Part shown: piece after piece, positions 1,786-8,484 of the stretch
How positions within the stretch are numbered: the stretch's first letter is position 1
Layout: the number at the start of each line of letters is the position of its first letter
Source: a virus
Virus record (IMG/VR): IMGVR_UViG_3300042991_000780
Span: 31,173-95,172 of that record
Reading direction: 5' to 3' (one strand)
Length of the DNA stretch: 64,000 nucleotides
Notes under the pieces: generated by a model
Databases searched by the model: none
What the model was told of the DNA's origin: nothing
What the model saw: the letters and a program-made list of their open reading frames with translations, nothing else
Position numbers and translations under genes: made by a program

Positions 1786-3420
1786 TTAAGCATTAATACT
1801 AATTTTTTTGTTCCTTTTAACAGGTGCTGCTTCAAGAGCAAGAACCTGATTTTCAAGCCACCTTTTGGTGTCAATTTCAAGCAACCTTGCGTTGATTTGT
1901 GGCTGCAAAGCAACGGGGTTATTTATTGCCATTGTGACAACTCCTGCACCAAGTTTCCTTACATTAGCACCCATTTCAGCACTCACGATTGGTGAAATTT
2001 GAAACATAGGTATATTTCTTCCGGTTTCTGCCTTCCAAATGTTGATAACTTCATTGGTAAGACCATCGTATGCGTTTTCGTATCCATCGGTTAAGATGAA
2101 GATTGCATCATATGGTTTTGAAGCATTTTCTGCTTTCAAAAGTCCAATAAATGAACTTGCCAAGTCAGTAACCTCACCATCAGTGTATTCAATACTGCAA
2201 CTATTGGTTGCAGATTTGCTCAATACCCTTGCGGTAAAGTCAGCAATTGCCTTTGGAGTGTTCTTTGATTCAGCCTGATGACCACTCATTGAATTACTCA
2301 TATCGACAATAATACCGATATTTGGGTAGAAGAATCCTACGATTTTCTTCTTGTCTGCAAGTTTGTCAATAGCACCCATTATTTCAGGAGTGAATTTTGT
2401 TTCATAACCTGTCTTGTAAAGTGCCAAGAAATCAGTTGCTTTTTCAAGATCAACATGTTTTTCAACACCCAACTTTGCAGTTGATTTTGTCTGACGAACC
2501 TGCTGGTTTACAGAAGTAACCTCAACATTTTTCCTAATCAAAGCCTTTGTTGCTTCTCTCTGGATTTTTGTTGACCACATTGAATGATACTGAGGATGCT
2601 TTACGCTTGAAATCAAGCCAAGCAATACTTCTTCAGGTACTTTCTTTGATGCAGTAATATCAGTCTTTGCTTTCTGATATTCACTCAAAAGAGGGAATAC
2701 ATTAGCATTAAACGTAACACCAGCATCTTTCTTGAAGATGAAAAGCATAAGTTTGAATGCTTTCATTGGATCACCATTGTAATACCTTAATATGTATTCA
2801 TTCAAAATCTTCATTTCCTTTTCAGTTCCAACAACGAATTCACCAACGTTAGCAGCCTTGCCAGTAATTGAAAGCAACACAGATGTCATTTTCTTTCCAT
2901 ATGCGTGCCTCAAAGTATCGGCAATCTTGTTACGATATTTCATTGCATAGAATTCAAGGTTTTCCTGACCCCAGATGAAGCCAAGCATGATTTTCCTTGA
3001 CCTTTCGTTGTTGATCTTTGCATTTTTCAATGAAACAAACAAACGAAGAACATATGGTAGACCACTTTCGCCAAGGTTGTTCAATGCTGAAAGCACTGCC
3101 TTATCGCTTAATCCGTTATCATACCAGTCAATTGGATTAACAATATTGCATGCTCCACCCTTTAAGGTACTTTTAAATTCATTAAACAATACCTCTGATA
3201 CGAACTGACCAGTCGCACCCTTCTGAGTTGCAACTATCAACGGGAGTTCCTTTGAAAGTTTATACAAACTCTTAACCTGAGTCTGAATAGCCTTCACCTG
3301 TTCGTCACCCTTGTGGTAATAGGTAGCACTACCTTTTGCACCACTTGCAATGGTAAGACCATCGATAAGTGACTGCTTTACCTTACTGAGCATGTTGTTT
3401 GCTAATACCAACTTTTCCAT
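1786..3420 (-). CDS. Ro60/TROVE-like protein: predicted helical N-terminal region plus C-terminal vWA domain
   Basis: MIDAS-like IIVDMSNSMSG and AIFILTDGYEN. At 544 aa, size and layout match Ro60/Rsr. The vWA call is firm and the TROVE homology is inferred. Confidence 0.6.
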   Translation of the reverse strand: MEKLVLANNMLSKVKQSLIDGLTIASGAKGSATYYHKGDEQVKAIQTQVKSLYKLSKELPLIVATQKGATGQFVSEVLFNEFKSTLKGGACNIVNPIDWYDNGLSDKAVLSALNNLGESGLPYVLRLFVSLKNAKINNERSRKIMLGFIWGQENLEFYAMKYRNKIADTLRHAYGKKMTSVLLSITGKAANVGEFVVGTEKEMKILNEYILRYYNGDPMKAFKLMLFIFKKDAGVTFNANVFPLLSEYQKAKTDITASKKVPEEVLLGLISSVKHPQYHSMWSTKIQREATKALIRKNVEVTSVNQQVRQTKSTAKLGVEKHVDLEKATDFLALYKTGYETKFTPEIMGAIDKLADKKKIVGFFYPNIGIIVDMSNSMSGHQAESKNTPKAIADFTARVLSKSATNSCSIEYTDGEVTDLASSFIGLLKAENASKPYDAIFILTDGYENAYDGLTNEVINIWKAETGRNIPMFQISPIVSAEMGANVRKLGAGVVTMAINNPVALQPQINARLLEIDTKRWLENQVLALEAAPVKRNKKISINA

Positions 3421-3458
3421 AATGACAATTTTTAATTATTAAAACTTATTTTTCATTG

Positions 3459-3492
3459 TGCAATGTTACACATTATTTTTTAATATCCAAAA
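3459..3492 (-). promoter_or_regulatory. Bacteroidota-type promoter for the vWA gene
   Basis: TTTG-N19-TAACATTG on the - strand, close to the -33 TTTG / -7 TAnnTTTG consensus. Confidence 0.5.
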
Positions 3493-3500
3493 AAATTATA

Positions 3501-3550
3501 AAAAAAATCGGGTAAGTCGATAGATTTCTCAATCAAGTCCCCACCCGATT
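3501..3550 (-). terminator. Terminator-like hairpin closing the RNA array
   Basis: AATCGGGT...ACCCGATT stem followed by TTTTT. Confidence 0.6.
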
Positions 3551-3581
3551 CGTTTTTTGGAATAACTCTTCTTCAAATTAA

Positions 3582-3675
3582 AGAAGAAGTGCGGTTGTAT
3601 TGCCTGTAGTTTGTCTCCCTTCTCACACGGGGGAGATTACATTTTTCAATTACTGTAAACACAGCCAGTTCTTCC
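3582..3675 (-). ncRNA. Scaffold RNA module M5 (hairpin cargo)
   Basis: GGAAGAAC-T-GGCTGTGTT-TACAGTAA-[TCTCCC/GGGAGA hairpin]-AATACAACC-GCAC-TTCTTC. Confidence 0.65.
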
Positions 3676-3755
3676 ATAAAAATTTATATTTTTTGAAAAA
3701 AATGCCACACACCTGTGACCAAAAAACCATTTTTAACCGTCAAATGTTAGGATTC

Positions 3756-3825
3756 CAAGTGGGGATTTGGATTAATATTACTTGATTTATCAAATTTGTC
3801 TGCAATCCGCATATCGCTCCACTTG
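3756..3825 (-). ncRNA. Possible degenerate sixth module
   Basis: CAAGTGG/CCACTTG and GGATT/AATCC stems. TTGCAGACAA sits where TTACAGTAA occurs in the others, followed by a small hairpin. Confidence 0.3.
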
Positions 3826-3834
3826 TATAATTTC

Positions 3835-3972
3835 GGGAATAATTTAAAAGTATTTGTTGTTTTTAATCAAAGTTTAAGAGACTTCTGACTTAACCGCTTG
3901 TCTATTTTTCAATTTTGGCTGAAAAAGATGGATTCGAACCACCGTATTACTGTAAACACTTTTCGTTTTCCC
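3835..3972 (-). ncRNA. Scaffold RNA module M4 containing a circularly permuted tRNA-Lys(CUU)-like cloverleaf
   Basis: Order: T arm GGTGG-TTCGAAT-CCATC, acceptor 3' strand TTTTTCA-G-CCA, linker AAAT, acceptor 5' strand TGAAAAA, D arm GAC-AAGCGGTTAA-GTC, anticodon arm GAAGT-CTCTTAA-ACTTT. The ends pair as the scaffold. Confidence 0.8.
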
Positions 3973-4001
3973 TCAATATTTTAAAGAACTTCAATAAGTT
4001 T

Positions 4002-4081
4002 AGAAGAAATTCGTTGGTCTTGTTGTCGTTATTAGTTTGATTTCAAGTCAAATTGTTACTGTAAAAACCACCAGTTCTTCT
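4002..4081 (-). ncRNA. Scaffold RNA module M3 carrying an isolated Ser(UGA)-type anticodon stem-loop
   Basis: AGAAGAAC...TGGTTTTTACAGTAA-CAA-TTTGA-CTTGAAA-TCAAA...AAGACCA...TTTCTTCT. Confidence 0.7.
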
Positions 4082-4153
4082 TTATATTTTAAATTTGTAG
4101 CAGGTTATTGTTTCAAATTTGAAATTTCAAAGTATTTATAATAAATAGTACTT

Positions 4154-4831
4154 ATGAAACCAAATTATACCGAATCTGAATTTGACACAGCAACATCTAC
4201 AAGTTTATTATCTTGTTTTTGTTATAATTGTAACACCCTTTTTAATGTAATGAAGAAAAATATTGTACAGGAATTAAAGCATAAAAGAGGAAGAATAAAA
4301 TTTTGTTCAAAGAAGTGTCATGATATTTATCAATCAAATCAAATCTCCGTTATTTGTAATAATTGCGGTAAAACATTTACTAAAATAGCATCTGAAATTA
4401 AAACAAATAATTTTTGTTCAAATTCATGCGCTGCAATATATAATAACACACATAAAACAAAAGGCAATCGTAGGTCTAAACTTGAAACATATCTTGAAAC
4501 ACAACTCGCTGCACAATTTCCAAATTTAGAAATATTATTCAACGATAAAAAAACAATTAATTCCGAACTGGATATTTACATACCCAGACTTCACCTTGCT
4601 TTTGAACTTAATGGTATTTTTCATTACGAACCTATCTATGGTCAAAATAAATTGAGTCAAATTCAAAATAATGATAATCGTAAATTTCAAGCCTGTTTAG
4701 AACAAGAAATTGAATTGTGTATTATTGATGTTTCACATCAAAAATATTTTAAAGAAAACACTTCAAAAAAGTATTTAGACATTCTCATTACAATTATAAA
4801 CAATAAGTCAATGAACATGTTAAACATTTAG
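4154..4831 (+). CDS. Zn-finger plus Vsr/DUF559-like endonuclease (free-standing homing endonuclease type)
   Basis: CxxC and FCSxxC repeats. C-terminal ELDIYIP...FELNGIFHY...DNRK. Own GTATTTAT motif at 4132. Confidence 0.7.
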   Translation: MKPNYTESEFDTATSTSLLSCFCYNCNTLFNVMKKNIVQELKHKRGRIKFCSKKCHDIYQSNQISVICNNCGKTFTKIASEIKTNNFCSNSCAAIYNNTHKTKGNRRSKLETYLETQLAAQFPNLEILFNDKKTINSELDIYIPRLHLAFELNGIFHYEPIYGQNKLSQIQNNDNRKFQACLEQEIELCIIDVSHQKYFKENTSKKYLDILITIINNKSMNMLNI

Positions 4832-4887
4832 TCAATCTATCGATTGTGCAGTAATTACCACGTGCAGGTAGTTTAACTTTAATTACT

Positions 4888-4961
4888 TAGCGGGAGATGG
4901 ATTCGAACCACCGACCTTAACGTTATGAGCGTCACGAGCTAACCACTGCTACTACCCCGCA
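4888..4961 (-). tRNA. tRNA-Met(CAU), initiator-like body with an atypical anticodon stem
   Basis: TGCGGGG-TA-GTAGCAGTGGTTAGCTC-G-TGACG-CTCATAA-CGTTA-AGGTC-GGTGG-TTCGAAT-CCATC-TCCCGCT-A. 1:72 mismatch and no encoded CCA. Confidence 0.9.
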
Positions 4962-5386
4962 ATATGTTTTTCCAATAAATCCCATGCTTCTCTATATTCA
5001 TGAGATTTTGGCTTTCTCTGTCTGGATACTTTTTCATGTAATGTTATTGAACCCGCAAATGAATTAAAAATATTAACAGGTACAACATAAAACACTTTTA
5101 GTTCTGAAATGAAAATTATTGCAAAATTAAAATCATTATTGGAATATTTTTCTCTTTTCATCACACGTCTATTTGTTTTGGTTCTTCTCACATCAATCAA
5201 ATAAACTCCTTCTTCTTTTGATAACCACGCTGACTTAACTTGTATCTTAATAAATTTATTATTAATAACAATGACCAAATCATATGGTAATCTATCACCT
5301 ACCGGAATTAAAACATCCCATCCCAATTGAAGTGCTTTTAATTGTACTTCAATCTCCGCAATATCACCTTTCATTTTAGTATCCAT
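4952..5386 (-). CDS. PD-(D/E)XK endonuclease, group I intron-associated (I-Ssp6803I/PDDEXK_5-like) family
   Basis: KGDIAE...IPVGDRLPYDLV...IQVKS...Y...DF. The stop codon overlaps the tRNA 5' end. Start taken at MDTK (alternative 5401). Confidence 0.8.
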   Translation of the reverse strand: MDTKMKGDIAEIEVQLKALQLGWDVLIPVGDRLPYDLVIVINNKFIKIQVKSAWLSKEEGVYLIDVRRTKTNRRVMKREKYSNNDFNFAIIFISELKVFYVVPVNIFNSFAGSITLHEKVSRQRKPKSHEYREAWDLLEKHIAG

Positions 5387-5411
5387 AATCTCAAAGAACA
5401 TTTAATAAGAT

Positions 5412-5549
5412 AAAAAAGGAAAATTTGTTTGTTATTTCTGTTATAAACAATGATGGAATTGAACCACCAACATTCTGCTTGACGTGCAAACACTCTAACC
5501 AGTTGAGTTAATTGTAATTTACTGTAATAACAACACCGTTTCCTTTTTT
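5412..5549 (-). ncRNA. Scaffold RNA module M2 enclosing a tRNA-Asp(GUC)-like cloverleaf (5447-5515)
   Basis: ACAAT-TA-ACTC-AACTGGTTA-GAGT-G-TTTGC-ACGTCAA-GCAGA-ATGTT-GGTGG-TTCAATT-CCATC-ATTGT, flanked by AGGAAAC..GTTATTACAGTAA and AATAAC..TTCCT. Confidence 0.75.
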
Positions 5550-5551
5550 TG

Positions 5552-5689
5552 TGGGGAGAACAGGAATCGAACCTGTAATCAATTGTGTTTAAAACAATTT
5601 GCTTTACCTTATTTACTGTAAACACTTCAAGTTCTCCCTTACGGGAGCAATGAGATAGTATTTTCGTTATTTTGATTTGCTATCTCCCC
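5552..5689 (-). ncRNA. Module M1: tRNA-like RNA with the scaffold inserted in the D arm
   Basis: 7-bp acceptor GGGGAGA/TCTCCCC and T arm ACAGG-TTCGATT-CCTGT. A ~65 nt insert AAATACT..CTCCC-GTAA-GGGAG-AAC..AGTGTTTACAGTAA lies in the D arm. Confidence 0.7.
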
Positions 5690-5732
5690 ATTTAAAAGTT
5701 TGTTCAAAGAACATTTTGTCATTCAGACGTTG

Positions 5733-5764
5733 CAAATATAAAACACCTTTTTTAATTGTGCAAG
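5733..5764 (-). promoter_or_regulatory. Bacteroidota-type promoter driving the RNA array
   Basis: CTTG-N20-TATATTTG (perfect -7 element). Confidence 0.6.
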
Positions 5765-5822
5765 CATTTTATAAAATATTTTCTAAAAAAATTAAAATAT
5801 TTTTATCTGCACGTCTGGAATA

Positions 5823-5830
5823 ATAAATAC
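5823..5830 (-). promoter_or_regulatory. Putative late promoter GTATTTAT upstream of the RNA array
   Basis: Same motif that precedes the structural genes of the window. Confidence 0.55.
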
Positions 5831-5869
5831 GATGATATTTCAAAAAAGTTATAAAAAAGTATAAAAAAA

Positions 5870-7777
5870 TTAATCTTTTTTCATAATATCCTGACTCTTA
5901 GCATTTTTGCGGATATGTTCAAGTACACTTAAAACATTACTATTATCACTTTCAAGACTATCTGGATCAGTTAAAATAATTTTATTTTCTTTTGGTAATT
6001 GTGGTTTTTCTTCTTCAATTATGATAAGATCATCAGTTTTTACCACTGGAATTTCACCAGTAAGTTCAGTTTTTGTCTCACCACTCTCGCCATTCCAGTC
6101 AAAATAATCACCACTTGGTTTAATATTTTCATTATTGGTCATTATAATCGGTTGTAATGTTTCGGGAATTTCTGAGACATTACCTGTAACAATAAGTGGT
6201 TCTTTTTCAACCTTTGGTACTTCAACGTATTCCCTATTCCACGCTGCCTTAAATTCCTCAAGTTCATTTTTCTTTTCAATTATAACATCATCATTAACAT
6301 TATCCAGATGATCCGCATATTTTTCCGATATGACTTGAGCAATTTTTTGTTGCGATGATACTTTATTTGCAATATCTTCAATATTTTCAACATCAGTAGT
6401 CTTAATACCAGTTGTTTTAATTGGATACCTTTCATCTTCAATAACAATTTCCATTGTATCATTATTGAACCTACTATCCCTAAAAGTTTGACCATCTTGT
6501 GCAAATCTTGCTTTTATTATTCTGATGTTTGCAAGACCTGCTTCTTTCTGATCTGCAGTTTTTGCAACTGACATAAAGAAGTGTGCTTTTTGAACACGTT
6601 TAATGCTACCACCAGTTTGGTATGCTTCAACATATTCTGAATCAAATCCACTTCTGTTTGTCTGTATTGCAGTCCATGCCGGAATGTTAAAATCGGCAGC
6701 AAGTGCTTCAAACGATTTAATAACCTGAAGTTCTGCTTCCGTTCTATCAGTTGTTTTCTTATTTGATTCAAGACAATCAAGATAATCAACAATAAGCATA
6801 TCAAACTTAAAACCCCATTTTTTCTCGTAACGAATCATCCAGTTCCTAATGTCAGTCATTGTTGTATTTTCCTGACTAAACTTCTTTATTACAAGATGTC
6901 CCTTACCATTTAATTTTTGTTTCTTTTGTTCAACTTTCTCAGCAACTTCGCTTAGATGTTCATCCATTTTACTTAATTGAACACCAGTCCATATGGTAAA
7001 ATGTTTTCTCTGTATTTGTTCTATCGTATCCTCAAAAACTATTTGTGCAACATTTTTCCCGGCAAAATCATATGCAGTATTTGCAATTTTGGTAAGCATC
7101 GTAGTTTTCCCAACCCCGGATGGTGTTAATATAACACCAATTTCACCCTTACCAAGACCACCATCAGTTACAATATCAATAACACGAATACCTGTTGGTA
7201 TTGTCTGACGGAATTCTTTTCTCAATACTCTATCGATGTTATCAATTACTTCAGTTCCAAAATCTTCTTCTTCTCCAATATGTGATATTTTCAGTAGTTT
7301 TTCATCAATCTCACCAAGTACATGTTTTTTTCGTATTTCTCCAGTTTTTGTTTTATCAATTATAAATTCAGCAAATTTTCTCCATTCTTGTTGTTTAATG
7401 AATGTTGTTGTTGTCTTTCGAATAGCCTCACCGTCATAATCAAGTTCCTTGTTAATGATTCGTTCATTCCATAATTGAACTTTCTTTATTACGGCAAATA
7501 ACGATTCTTCCTCAATCTGATTGTTGGGTGCTTTAAATTGATTGATTGCTTGTTGAATACTTTGATTCTGTAAATTTGGTACTTTACCAAATTCTTTATA
7601 ATACTCCAATATTATAATGAAGAGTCTCCTATAATTTGGATCATCAAAATATTCAACAGATAAATTAGATAATGTTTTTTCGGCAAACTCTGGTTCGACA
7701 AGCAATTGCCACATAAGACGCAATTGAAATTCCGGTCCGAGATATGCCGTAAATGTATTTTCTGTAACTTCTGCCAT
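5870..7777 (-). CDS. Replicative DNA helicase (DnaB/T4 gp41-like) with a long acidic C-terminal extension
   Basis: Walker A TPSGVGKTT, LIVDYLD, WTAIQTNR, IIKARF. Confidence 0.9.
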   Translation of the reverse strand: MAEVTENTFTAYLGPEFQLRLMWQLLVEPEFAEKTLSNLSVEYFDDPNYRRLFIIILEYYKEFGKVPNLQNQSIQQAINQFKAPNNQIEEESLFAVIKKVQLWNERIINKELDYDGEAIRKTTTTFIKQQEWRKFAEFIIDKTKTGEIRKKHVLGEIDEKLLKISHIGEEEDFGTEVIDNIDRVLRKEFRQTIPTGIRVIDIVTDGGLGKGEIGVILTPSGVGKTTMLTKIANTAYDFAGKNVAQIVFEDTIEQIQRKHFTIWTGVQLSKMDEHLSEVAEKVEQKKQKLNGKGHLVIKKFSQENTTMTDIRNWMIRYEKKWGFKFDMLIVDYLDCLESNKKTTDRTEAELQVIKSFEALAADFNIPAWTAIQTNRSGFDSEYVEAYQTGGSIKRVQKAHFFMSVAKTADQKEAGLANIRIIKARFAQDGQTFRDSRFNNDTMEIVIEDERYPIKTTGIKTTDVENIEDIANKVSSQQKIAQVISEKYADHLDNVNDDVIIEKKNELEEFKAAWNREYVEVPKVEKEPLIVTGNVSEIPETLQPIIMTNNENIKPSGDYFDWNGESGETKTELTGEIPVVKTDDLIIIEEEKPQLPKENKIILTDPDSLESDNSNVLSVLEHIRKNAKSQDIMKKD

Positions 7778-7881
7778 TTTAAAATTTTCTTATAAAAAGG
7801 CAGTTGTTGCTATATATGAAATATGAAAATGAAGTATCAAAAACAAAGATTCACGCAACAACCGCCCAATATCAAACAGAC

Positions 7882-8484
7882 TTAGTTTTTCCTAAGTCTT
7901 CTCAACATCTCTTCTCTCTTAGCCGGAGAAAGTTCTCTGATCTGATTAATGGATAAACCTTTAATATTAATCAAATCATAATCGTCCCACATGTTTTTAA
8001 TATCGTTCCTTTTAATAAGATTGAAAATGTTATCAGCAACATCAACAACAGCATTAACCATATCGGCAGAAAATTTTGCAACCGGATTAAATCCGTCAAC
8101 ATAAAACATTCTTTCAACAATTGGTTTATCATTAATATAAAAACCAATTTTACATTCAACACCCCTAATTGTTTTATCTTCAATTTGTTGTACGATTGGT
8201 GTTGGATTATAATACATTTCTTTTCTCCACTCCTGCGGATATTTGCTAATCATCTTCTGATTATGTTGAAAAAAATCGAGTTCATTTGAAAACTGAGTTT
8301 CATATGATCGCTTCGATAATACCTTTTGTATTCTGGTGATTGCTTTTGGAAGAATTTCTCTTATGTCAATTGAATACCTTGTGAAAGGATTAAACTGATC
8401 GGCACTAAACACTTTTTCACACATCAACGTATTTTCCTGATATAGTGAAAACCTAAACATGTTATTAAATTCTTTCTCGTTCAT
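7882..8484 (-). CDS. Hypothetical protein
   Basis: 200-aa ORF in the replication block. TATATTTG promoter element at 8519-8526. Confidence 0.6.
   Translation of the reverse strand: MNEKEFNNMFRFSLYQENTLMCEKVFSADQFNPFTRYSIDIREILPKAITRIQKVLSKRSYETQFSNELDFFQHNQKMISKYPQEWRKEMYYNPTPIVQQIEDKTIRGVECKIGFYINDKPIVERMFYVDGFNPVAKFSADMVNAVVDVADNIFNLIKRNDIKNMWDDYDLINIKGLSINQIRELSPAKREEMLRRLRKN

Follow-up and report, generated by a model that had tools for sequence, protein, structure and literature searches.

The 64,000-nucleotide stretch of viral DNA analyzed here (the window) carries, immediately in front of an initiator-type tRNA(CAU) gene, a gene for a homing endonuclease of the I-Ssp6803I family. At a probability of roughly 0.6, we read it as a free-standing, mobile homing gene that has settled in the spacer before the initiator-type tRNA(CAU) gene of AT-rich giant phages. 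Since the 95-kb source record is only about 31% complete according to CheckV, the phage is a giant, AT-rich one, and the hosts of these phages probably belong to the Bacteroidota. A megablast search of GenBank phages with positions 3800-8000 gave zero matches, and tblastn against the same phages returned distant partial matches only. On the minus strand, the locus comprises, in this order, a gene for a DnaB-like helicase (7777-5870), two tRNA-like modules (5690-5552, between the helicase gene and the nuclease ORF, and 5517-5444), a spacer (5387-5443), the nuclease gene (4952-5386; 144 aa from the ATG at 5386) and the intron-free, initiator-like tRNA(CAU) gene of 74 nt (4888-4961). Comparison of empty with filled sites showed that the 5' part of the spacer (...AACAAACAAATTTTCCTTTTTT) is common to empty sites and that the left junction of the nuclease cassette lies after this run. 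The module at 5444-5517 and its counterparts in other loci (L004, L007, L008, L306, L316, L317, L325 and L333) are built on one scaffold with varying 'anticodons' (GUC with C33, UCA, UUA, UAU, CAA and GCU); the variation of the anticodon between relatives had suggested a suppressor tRNA set, a reading that was dropped for this module, in which the UUACAGUAA scaffold is present. A second, unrelated nuclease-like ORF of 225 aa (4154-4831, plus strand) lies on the opposite side of the tRNA from the I-Ssp6803I-like gene. It combines zinc-finger motifs (Pfam) with an endonuclease-like C-terminal part and matches PHROG 559, 1271 and 9084, which are annotated as 'HNH/homing endonuclease'. The insertion on which it resides is about 800 nt long and is missing from most relatives (among them L292, L004, L007, L354, L348 and L350). 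L292 is the nuclease-free relative whose upstream region comes closest to that of the window; compared with it, the window tRNA is flanked by two insertions, and the presence of the I-Ssp6803I-like gene and of this ORF around the tRNA indicates that two different mobile nuclease genes flank it. A 75%-identical copy of the zinc-finger ORF is found behind the tRNA of L313.

The assignment of the nuclease to the I-Ssp6803I family, which the original prediction had made from the letters of the DNA, was borne out by profile and structure-based comparisons. The protein matched the Pfam family PF11645 (PDDEXK_5) with an E-value of 4e-42 over profile positions 1-137 of 138, and I-Ssp6803I itself (PDB 2OST) with an E-value of 6e-44 over its full length (residues 2-138 against 3-139, about 55% identity); a search of the protein against NCBIfam found no matching model. 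To our knowledge, this is the only family of homing endonucleases with a PD-(D/E)XK fold. The open frame extends from 4952 to 5401 (minus strand) and includes an in-frame upstream ATG at 5401. Since all homologues begin with MDTK..., the start is most likely the ATG at 5386, from which the N-terminus reads MDTKMKGD as in the homologues, and the ATG at 5401 is probably not used. Numbered from this methionine, D36, Q49 and K51, which we take to be the catalytic residues of the PD...QxK active site, are invariant in the homologue alignment, as are the segments RTKTNRR and RQRKP, and the motifs GDRLPYD and IQVK are identical between the window nuclease and the prototype. Comparison of the window nuclease with intact phage homologues yielded dN/dS values of 0.13-0.21, which point to purifying selection on the intact copies. 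The ORF ends in ...ATT GCG GGG TAG, and the TAG (4954-4952) corresponds to positions 8-10 of the tRNA, in agreement with the earlier observation that the stop codon overlaps the 5' end of the tRNA gene; the ORF thus has no stop codon of its own and uses one supplied by the tRNA. A Shine-Dalgarno sequence is absent before the ORF. Since the stop codon lies inside the tRNA, cleavage by RNase P at the tRNA 5' end would remove it, and this may keep expression of the nuclease low. None of the phage nuclease ORFs has its own stop: those of the window, L004 and L007 terminate at tRNA positions 8-13, and those of L094 (1504-1962), L008 (2513-2980) and L009 (2501-2959) terminate at the UAA of the anticodon loop CUCAUAA.

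The tRNA gene itself was called by ARAGORN as tRNA-Met(CAT) at 4887-4962 (minus strand) and delimited by hand to 74 nt (4961 to 4888), with the anticodon CAT at 4927-4925, and it scored 33.2 bits against the Rfam tRNA model (4888-4961), above the gathering score. It is contiguous, and the group I intron model gave zero matches in 3000-6500 even at E<=5, so that the absence of an intron noted in the original prediction stands. The tRNA shows the marks of an initiator (a U1·U72 mismatch, G2:C71, C3:G70, A73, A11:U24, the CAU anticodon and the variable loop AGGUC), in which it resembles bacterial initiators, together with a D stem containing an extra U and a 3' end at which CCA is not encoded; initiator genes fetched from Bacteroidota likewise end in ...GCTAC, with C1 or U1 facing U72. 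In an alignment of 22 distinct relatives, 93.5% of the cells of the cloverleaf were paired. Compensatory changes were seen at 15 of 21 pairs, among them the whole anticodon stem with its five pairs, which indicates that the gene is under selection as a tRNA. The 1:72 position was unpaired in 21 of the 22 relatives, and A11:U24 was found in 20 of them. The anticodon stem of the window tRNA is UGACG/CGUUA, not UCGGG/CCCGA, with the pairs U27-A43, G28·U42, A29-U41, C30-G40 and G31-C39. Three consecutive G-C pairs in the anticodon stem are regarded as a hallmark of initiator function, and this run of three (29-31:39-41) is absent from the window tRNA. In the prototype I-Ssp6803I, the DNA of the anticodon arm of tRNA-fMet is what the enzyme, a tetramer, recognizes and cuts. 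Read directly from the window, the equivalent 23-mer TCGTGACGCTCATAACGTTAAGG (4937-4915, minus strand) is as given in the original prediction: it departs from the canonical site by six changes, all at stem positions 28-30 and 40-42, and the pairing is preserved, with one G·U at 28:42. In L005, a tRNA cluster beside a distant nuclease homologue includes a tRNA gene (3733-3854) whose anticodon loop is interrupted by about 49-55 nt, a length that a group I intron would exceed.

A scan of species genomes and metagenomes with the homologue alignment, from which 160 loci were kept, placed the window nuclease in the context of its bacterial family. When introns were allowed in ARAGORN, an intron-split tRNA-Met spanned the nuclease ORF at 54 of the 160 loci, and many further loci have the same intron layout but were mis-called by the program. 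Most of the homologues at the loci fetched are thus located within a split tRNA-fMet gene or right behind it, which makes the link of the I-Ssp6803I family to initiator tRNA genes a general one. In one of the two layouts found, the nuclease ORF is contained in an intron of 640-700 nt; in the other, the intron is ORF-less and measures 260-325 nt, and the nuclease gene follows the tRNA at a distance of 60-80 nt. The second layout is seen in L017, L020, L022 and L015 (Arcicella/Cytophagales), in L013 and L018 (Saprospiraceae) and in L019, L061, L078 and L089 (Anaerolineae). G30 G31 and C39 C40 were kept in every parsed bacterial exon arm, with variation at 27-29 and 41-43, and the commonest arm of the intron-bearing bacterial tRNA-fMet genes beside homologous nucleases was TCGGG/CCCGA, which confirms the canonical stem.

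In phages, a nuclease of this family at the same site, running into the tRNA, occurs in about ten lineages. A nuclease gene and, directly behind it, an intact tRNA(CAU) mismatched at 1:72 were found in the window and in L004, L007, L093, L094, L095, L008, L114, L009 and L005, the nucleases of which are 87%, 83%, 81%, 80%, 77%, 76%, 57%, 52% and 51% identical to that of the window, respectively. The helicase led to 56 loci, and in about 30 of the helicase-syntenic relatives the same RNA modules are followed by the tRNA with no nuclease in between; of about 35 helicase-syntenic loci, 4 carry the nuclease. The empty sites are clean: a hairpin or a spacer some 38 nt long stands there, with ...ATAT|TGCGGG at its end; no nuclease remnants were found in those of L295 and L338, which have a hairpin instead. 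In addition, decayed copies were recognized by an internal deletion (L006/L293), a frame break (L095) and two in-frame TAA codons in L093 (1516-1947; codons 13 and 141), the gene of which is otherwise well conserved and probably decayed recently, with read-through also being possible. In a quick tree, the five close phage nucleases grouped together with an SH-aLRT support of 100; a long stem branch leads to this clade, which was placed in an unresolved comb with mostly Bacteroidota groups. The combination of presence and absence at one site, decay, and selection on intact copies is what is commonly seen with homing endonuclease genes, which invade, degenerate and disappear, and together with the near-isogenic pair described below it upholds the original view of the nuclease as a free-standing homing unit. 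We consider it highly improbable that the nuclease no longer homes, being either an inactive relic or a protein recruited by the phage, for example for degrading host DNA at tRNA-fMet genes. The decayed copies in three relatives and an ORF with neither its own stop codon nor a Shine-Dalgarno sequence would suit such a fate; however, the window copy is intact with all motif residues present, the low dN/dS values show selection on the protein, and a distribution as patchy as this is easier to reconcile with a selfish element than with a recruited function.

If the gene is a mobile homing gene, the nuclease would be expected to act in mixed infections as the prototype does, cutting relatives without the gene in the anticodon-arm DNA of their tRNA(CAU) where that allele is sensitive; the candidate sensitive alleles are those that retain the GGCTCATAACC core. 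Repair from the carrier genome would then copy the nuclease gene together with the stretch up to the cut, i.e., the 5' two-thirds of the tRNA. Two things make anticodon-arm DNA the probable target: the properties of the family, and a single near-isogenic pair consisting of L007, which has the nuclease, and L300, which does not. These two loci are identical at 260 of 263 nt upstream and at 155 of 156 nt from tRNA position 44 on. The differences are the nuclease cassette, in place of which L300 has a hairpin spacer of 36 nt, and 13 changes, all of them between tRNA positions 7 and 43. These changes affect the D arm and the anticodon stem, which is CTTGG/CCAAG in L300, as in L292, and TGACG/CGTTA in L007, and the exchanged block stops with the 3' strand of the anticodon stem, near the cut position of the prototype. 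In this single pair, the block thus appears to be what co-conversion between a free-standing nuclease gene and a nearby cut site predicts. However, its right boundary is also the start of conserved tRNA sequence, and in this one pair homology alone could have placed the crossover there. The window shares the block type of L007, with a different T arm, and its tRNA is 92-94% identical to those of L354 and L348, against 68-75% for the flanks, which indicates that the tRNA segment of the window is mosaic.

The same comparisons bear on the idea, to which we assign a low likelihood, that the nuclease recognizes the spacer or hairpin together with the 5' end of the tRNA, so that the insertion destroys the target, the anticodon arm is irrelevant, and the 5' part of the tRNA is merely exchanged as flanking DNA. 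Such a target would account for the position of the cassette, which is found without exception at a single point, about 10 nt ahead of the tRNA, where it takes the place of a short spacer or hairpin. It would also explain why one nuclease clade occurs with many anticodon arms and why identical arms are found with and without the gene (L093 compared with L295, and the window compared with L354). On the other hand, the prototype recognizes the anticodon arm, the basic segments of the protein are conserved without variation, and the tract exchanged in L007/L300 stops precisely where the anticodon stem does. Moreover, the spacers of empty sites vary greatly among relatives and would therefore make poor targets.

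The original prediction had gone further and proposed that the anticodon stem was recoded as the cassette's own immunity allele, in the manner of a weapon with its antidote: under selection by the nuclease, the phage stem would have been altered, the canonical tRNA-fMet genes of hosts or competitors would be cut, and RNases of the VapC type would possibly be evaded. We judge this unlikely, if somewhat less so than a target in the empty site. In its favor are the identity of about 55% to I-Ssp6803I, the retention of GGCTCATAACC in all parsed bacterial target arms and its disruption in the window arm, the absence of the core from 8 of 10 nuclease-linked phage tRNAs, and the L007/L300 block, which ties the nuclease to the TGACG/CGTTA arm. 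However, the exact arm CTCGTGACGCTCATAACGTYAAG was found in 16 IMG/VR contigs, 15 of which do not have the nuclease, so that nuclease-free relatives, which on this proposal might be expected to carry the canonical stem, in fact share the same non-canonical one. TGACG/CGTYA arms occur next to a clean empty site in L295, L338/L339, L348, L350, L352, L354/L355 and L358. Among these, the nuclease-free L354/L355 differ from the window by one base in the 5' half of the tRNA, and L350 has the same CGTTA wobble as the window. The same TGACG/CGTYA arm is also present in L349, L359 and L361, which are GC-rich contigs (41-58% G+C) with tRNAs otherwise unlike that of the window, indicating that the arm is a recurrent type and not an oddity of one lineage.

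Further evidence came from a scan of IMG/VR for this class of tRNAs with the pattern TGCGGG..CTCATAA..TCCCGCTA, which gave at least 120 stretches (loci L172-L291). Among the matches listed, 92 unique tRNAs had 500 nt or more of DNA in front of them, and the nuclease preceded none of these. The three G-C pairs were kept in 14 of the 92 (about 15% of 92-99 unique class tRNAs among the matches listed), leaving about 85% of nuclease-free members without them, and the GG/CC core (G30G31/C39C40) was kept in 46 of the 92 nuclease-free class tRNAs among the matches listed (about 50%). The stems of this phage class of initiator-like tRNAs (U1·U72, A73) are highly variable with preserved pairing, and the loop is invariant. 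In addition, the intact nuclease of L004, which is 87% identical to that of the window, adjoins a tRNA with the canonical-core arm CCGGG/CCCGG. Although the GG/CC core was missing more often from nuclease-linked than from nuclease-free phage tRNAs (8 of 10 compared with 46 of 92 among the matches listed), this enrichment was not significant (Fisher p = 0.10-0.44; 0.10 overall and 0.21 within the clade). Since the arm occurs in nuclease-free relatives, the stems of the class are variable, L004 retains the canonical core and the enrichment is not significant, a recoding of the stem for the nuclease is rejected, and the idea of a weapon with its antidote is not supported. As judged from these comparisons, UGACG/CGUUA is a common allele of a hypervariable class of phage tRNAs, in circulation also without the nuclease, and not an arm rewritten for it. 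The window arm may nevertheless be a resistant, uncuttable allele that is tolerated beside the nuclease gene and is sometimes carried along with it.

Several observations argue against our preferred reading of a mobile homing gene that cuts the anticodon arm and copies itself together with the 5' part of the tRNA. At least seven different anticodon arms are found on nuclease-linked tRNAs, the nucleases of which are 76-87% identical, a diversity that co-conversion of a single resistant arm would not, in its simple form, be expected to produce. Likewise, the arm adjoining the intact nuclease of L004 keeps the canonical GGG/CCC core, and the loss of the GG/CC core is not significantly enriched among nuclease-linked alleles. 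Self-protection could instead be provided by DNA modification, or by the insertion itself destroying the site. A wider version of the co-conversion scheme, which we hold to be about as doubtful as a target in the empty site, would trace the variability of the stems across the class to an arms race in which I-Ssp6803I-type nucleases attack the DNA of the arm. Cassettes would then spread as a nuclease with a resistant arm, and conversion of the arm only would give rise to resistant empty sites, such as those of L354, L350 and L295.

The phage nuclease resembles the enzyme encoded in the group I intron of the tRNA-fMet gene of Synechocystis PCC 6803, I-Ssp6803I, in its fold family, in its full-length identity of about 55% and in its motif residues, as well as in the neighborhood of an initiator-type tRNA(CAU) and probably in the kind of target, the DNA of the anticodon arm. 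In contrast to the I-Ssp6803I gene, the window gene has no intron, stands before an intact tRNA, overlaps the tRNA 5' end and borrows its stop codon from the tRNA. It is, moreover, located in a phage, the genome of which is not shielded by an intron that splits the site, and the five close phage nucleases form a clade separate from the prototype on a long stem branch. A second point of comparison is SegB of phage T4, a free-standing homing endonuclease of the GIY-YIG type that is encoded in the T4 tRNA gene cluster, recognizes the DNA for a conserved tRNA element, the T-arm motif, and is of demonstrated activity, being inherited preferentially together with neighboring tRNA markers in co-infection (PMC2330249). 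Both SegB and the window nuclease are products of free-standing genes in a cluster of phage tRNA or RNA genes, the window nuclease, like SegB, probably has DNA for a conserved tRNA element as its target, and co-inheritance with tRNA markers may be common to both, as suggested for the phage nuclease studied here by the L007/L300 block. However, the folds of the two enzymes, GIY-YIG and PD-(D/E)XK, are unrelated, and the activity of the window nuclease is a predicted one. An example of collaborative homing is that of F-CphI, which is encoded beside the psbA intron in cyanophages. The bacterial layouts with an ORF-less intron resemble this type of homing, and they are similar to the window in that the nuclease gene lies outside an intron and adjoins an initiator tRNA gene. 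They differ in that the intron splits the target and thereby provides immunity, with the nuclease gene 3' of the tRNA, whereas the window has no intron and its nuclease gene is 5' of the tRNA.

Independent of the nuclease, most phage initiator-like tRNAs of this class, among the matches listed, do not have the three G-C pairs regarded as a hallmark of initiators. With regard to the nuclease, the results show that the I-Ssp6803I family also exists without its intron, in free-standing cassettes located at initiator-type tRNA genes of phages. The naturally filled, empty and decayed sites, together with a near-isogenic pair that points to the position of the cut, would make the specificity of the enzyme and the co-conversion of its flanks directly testable.
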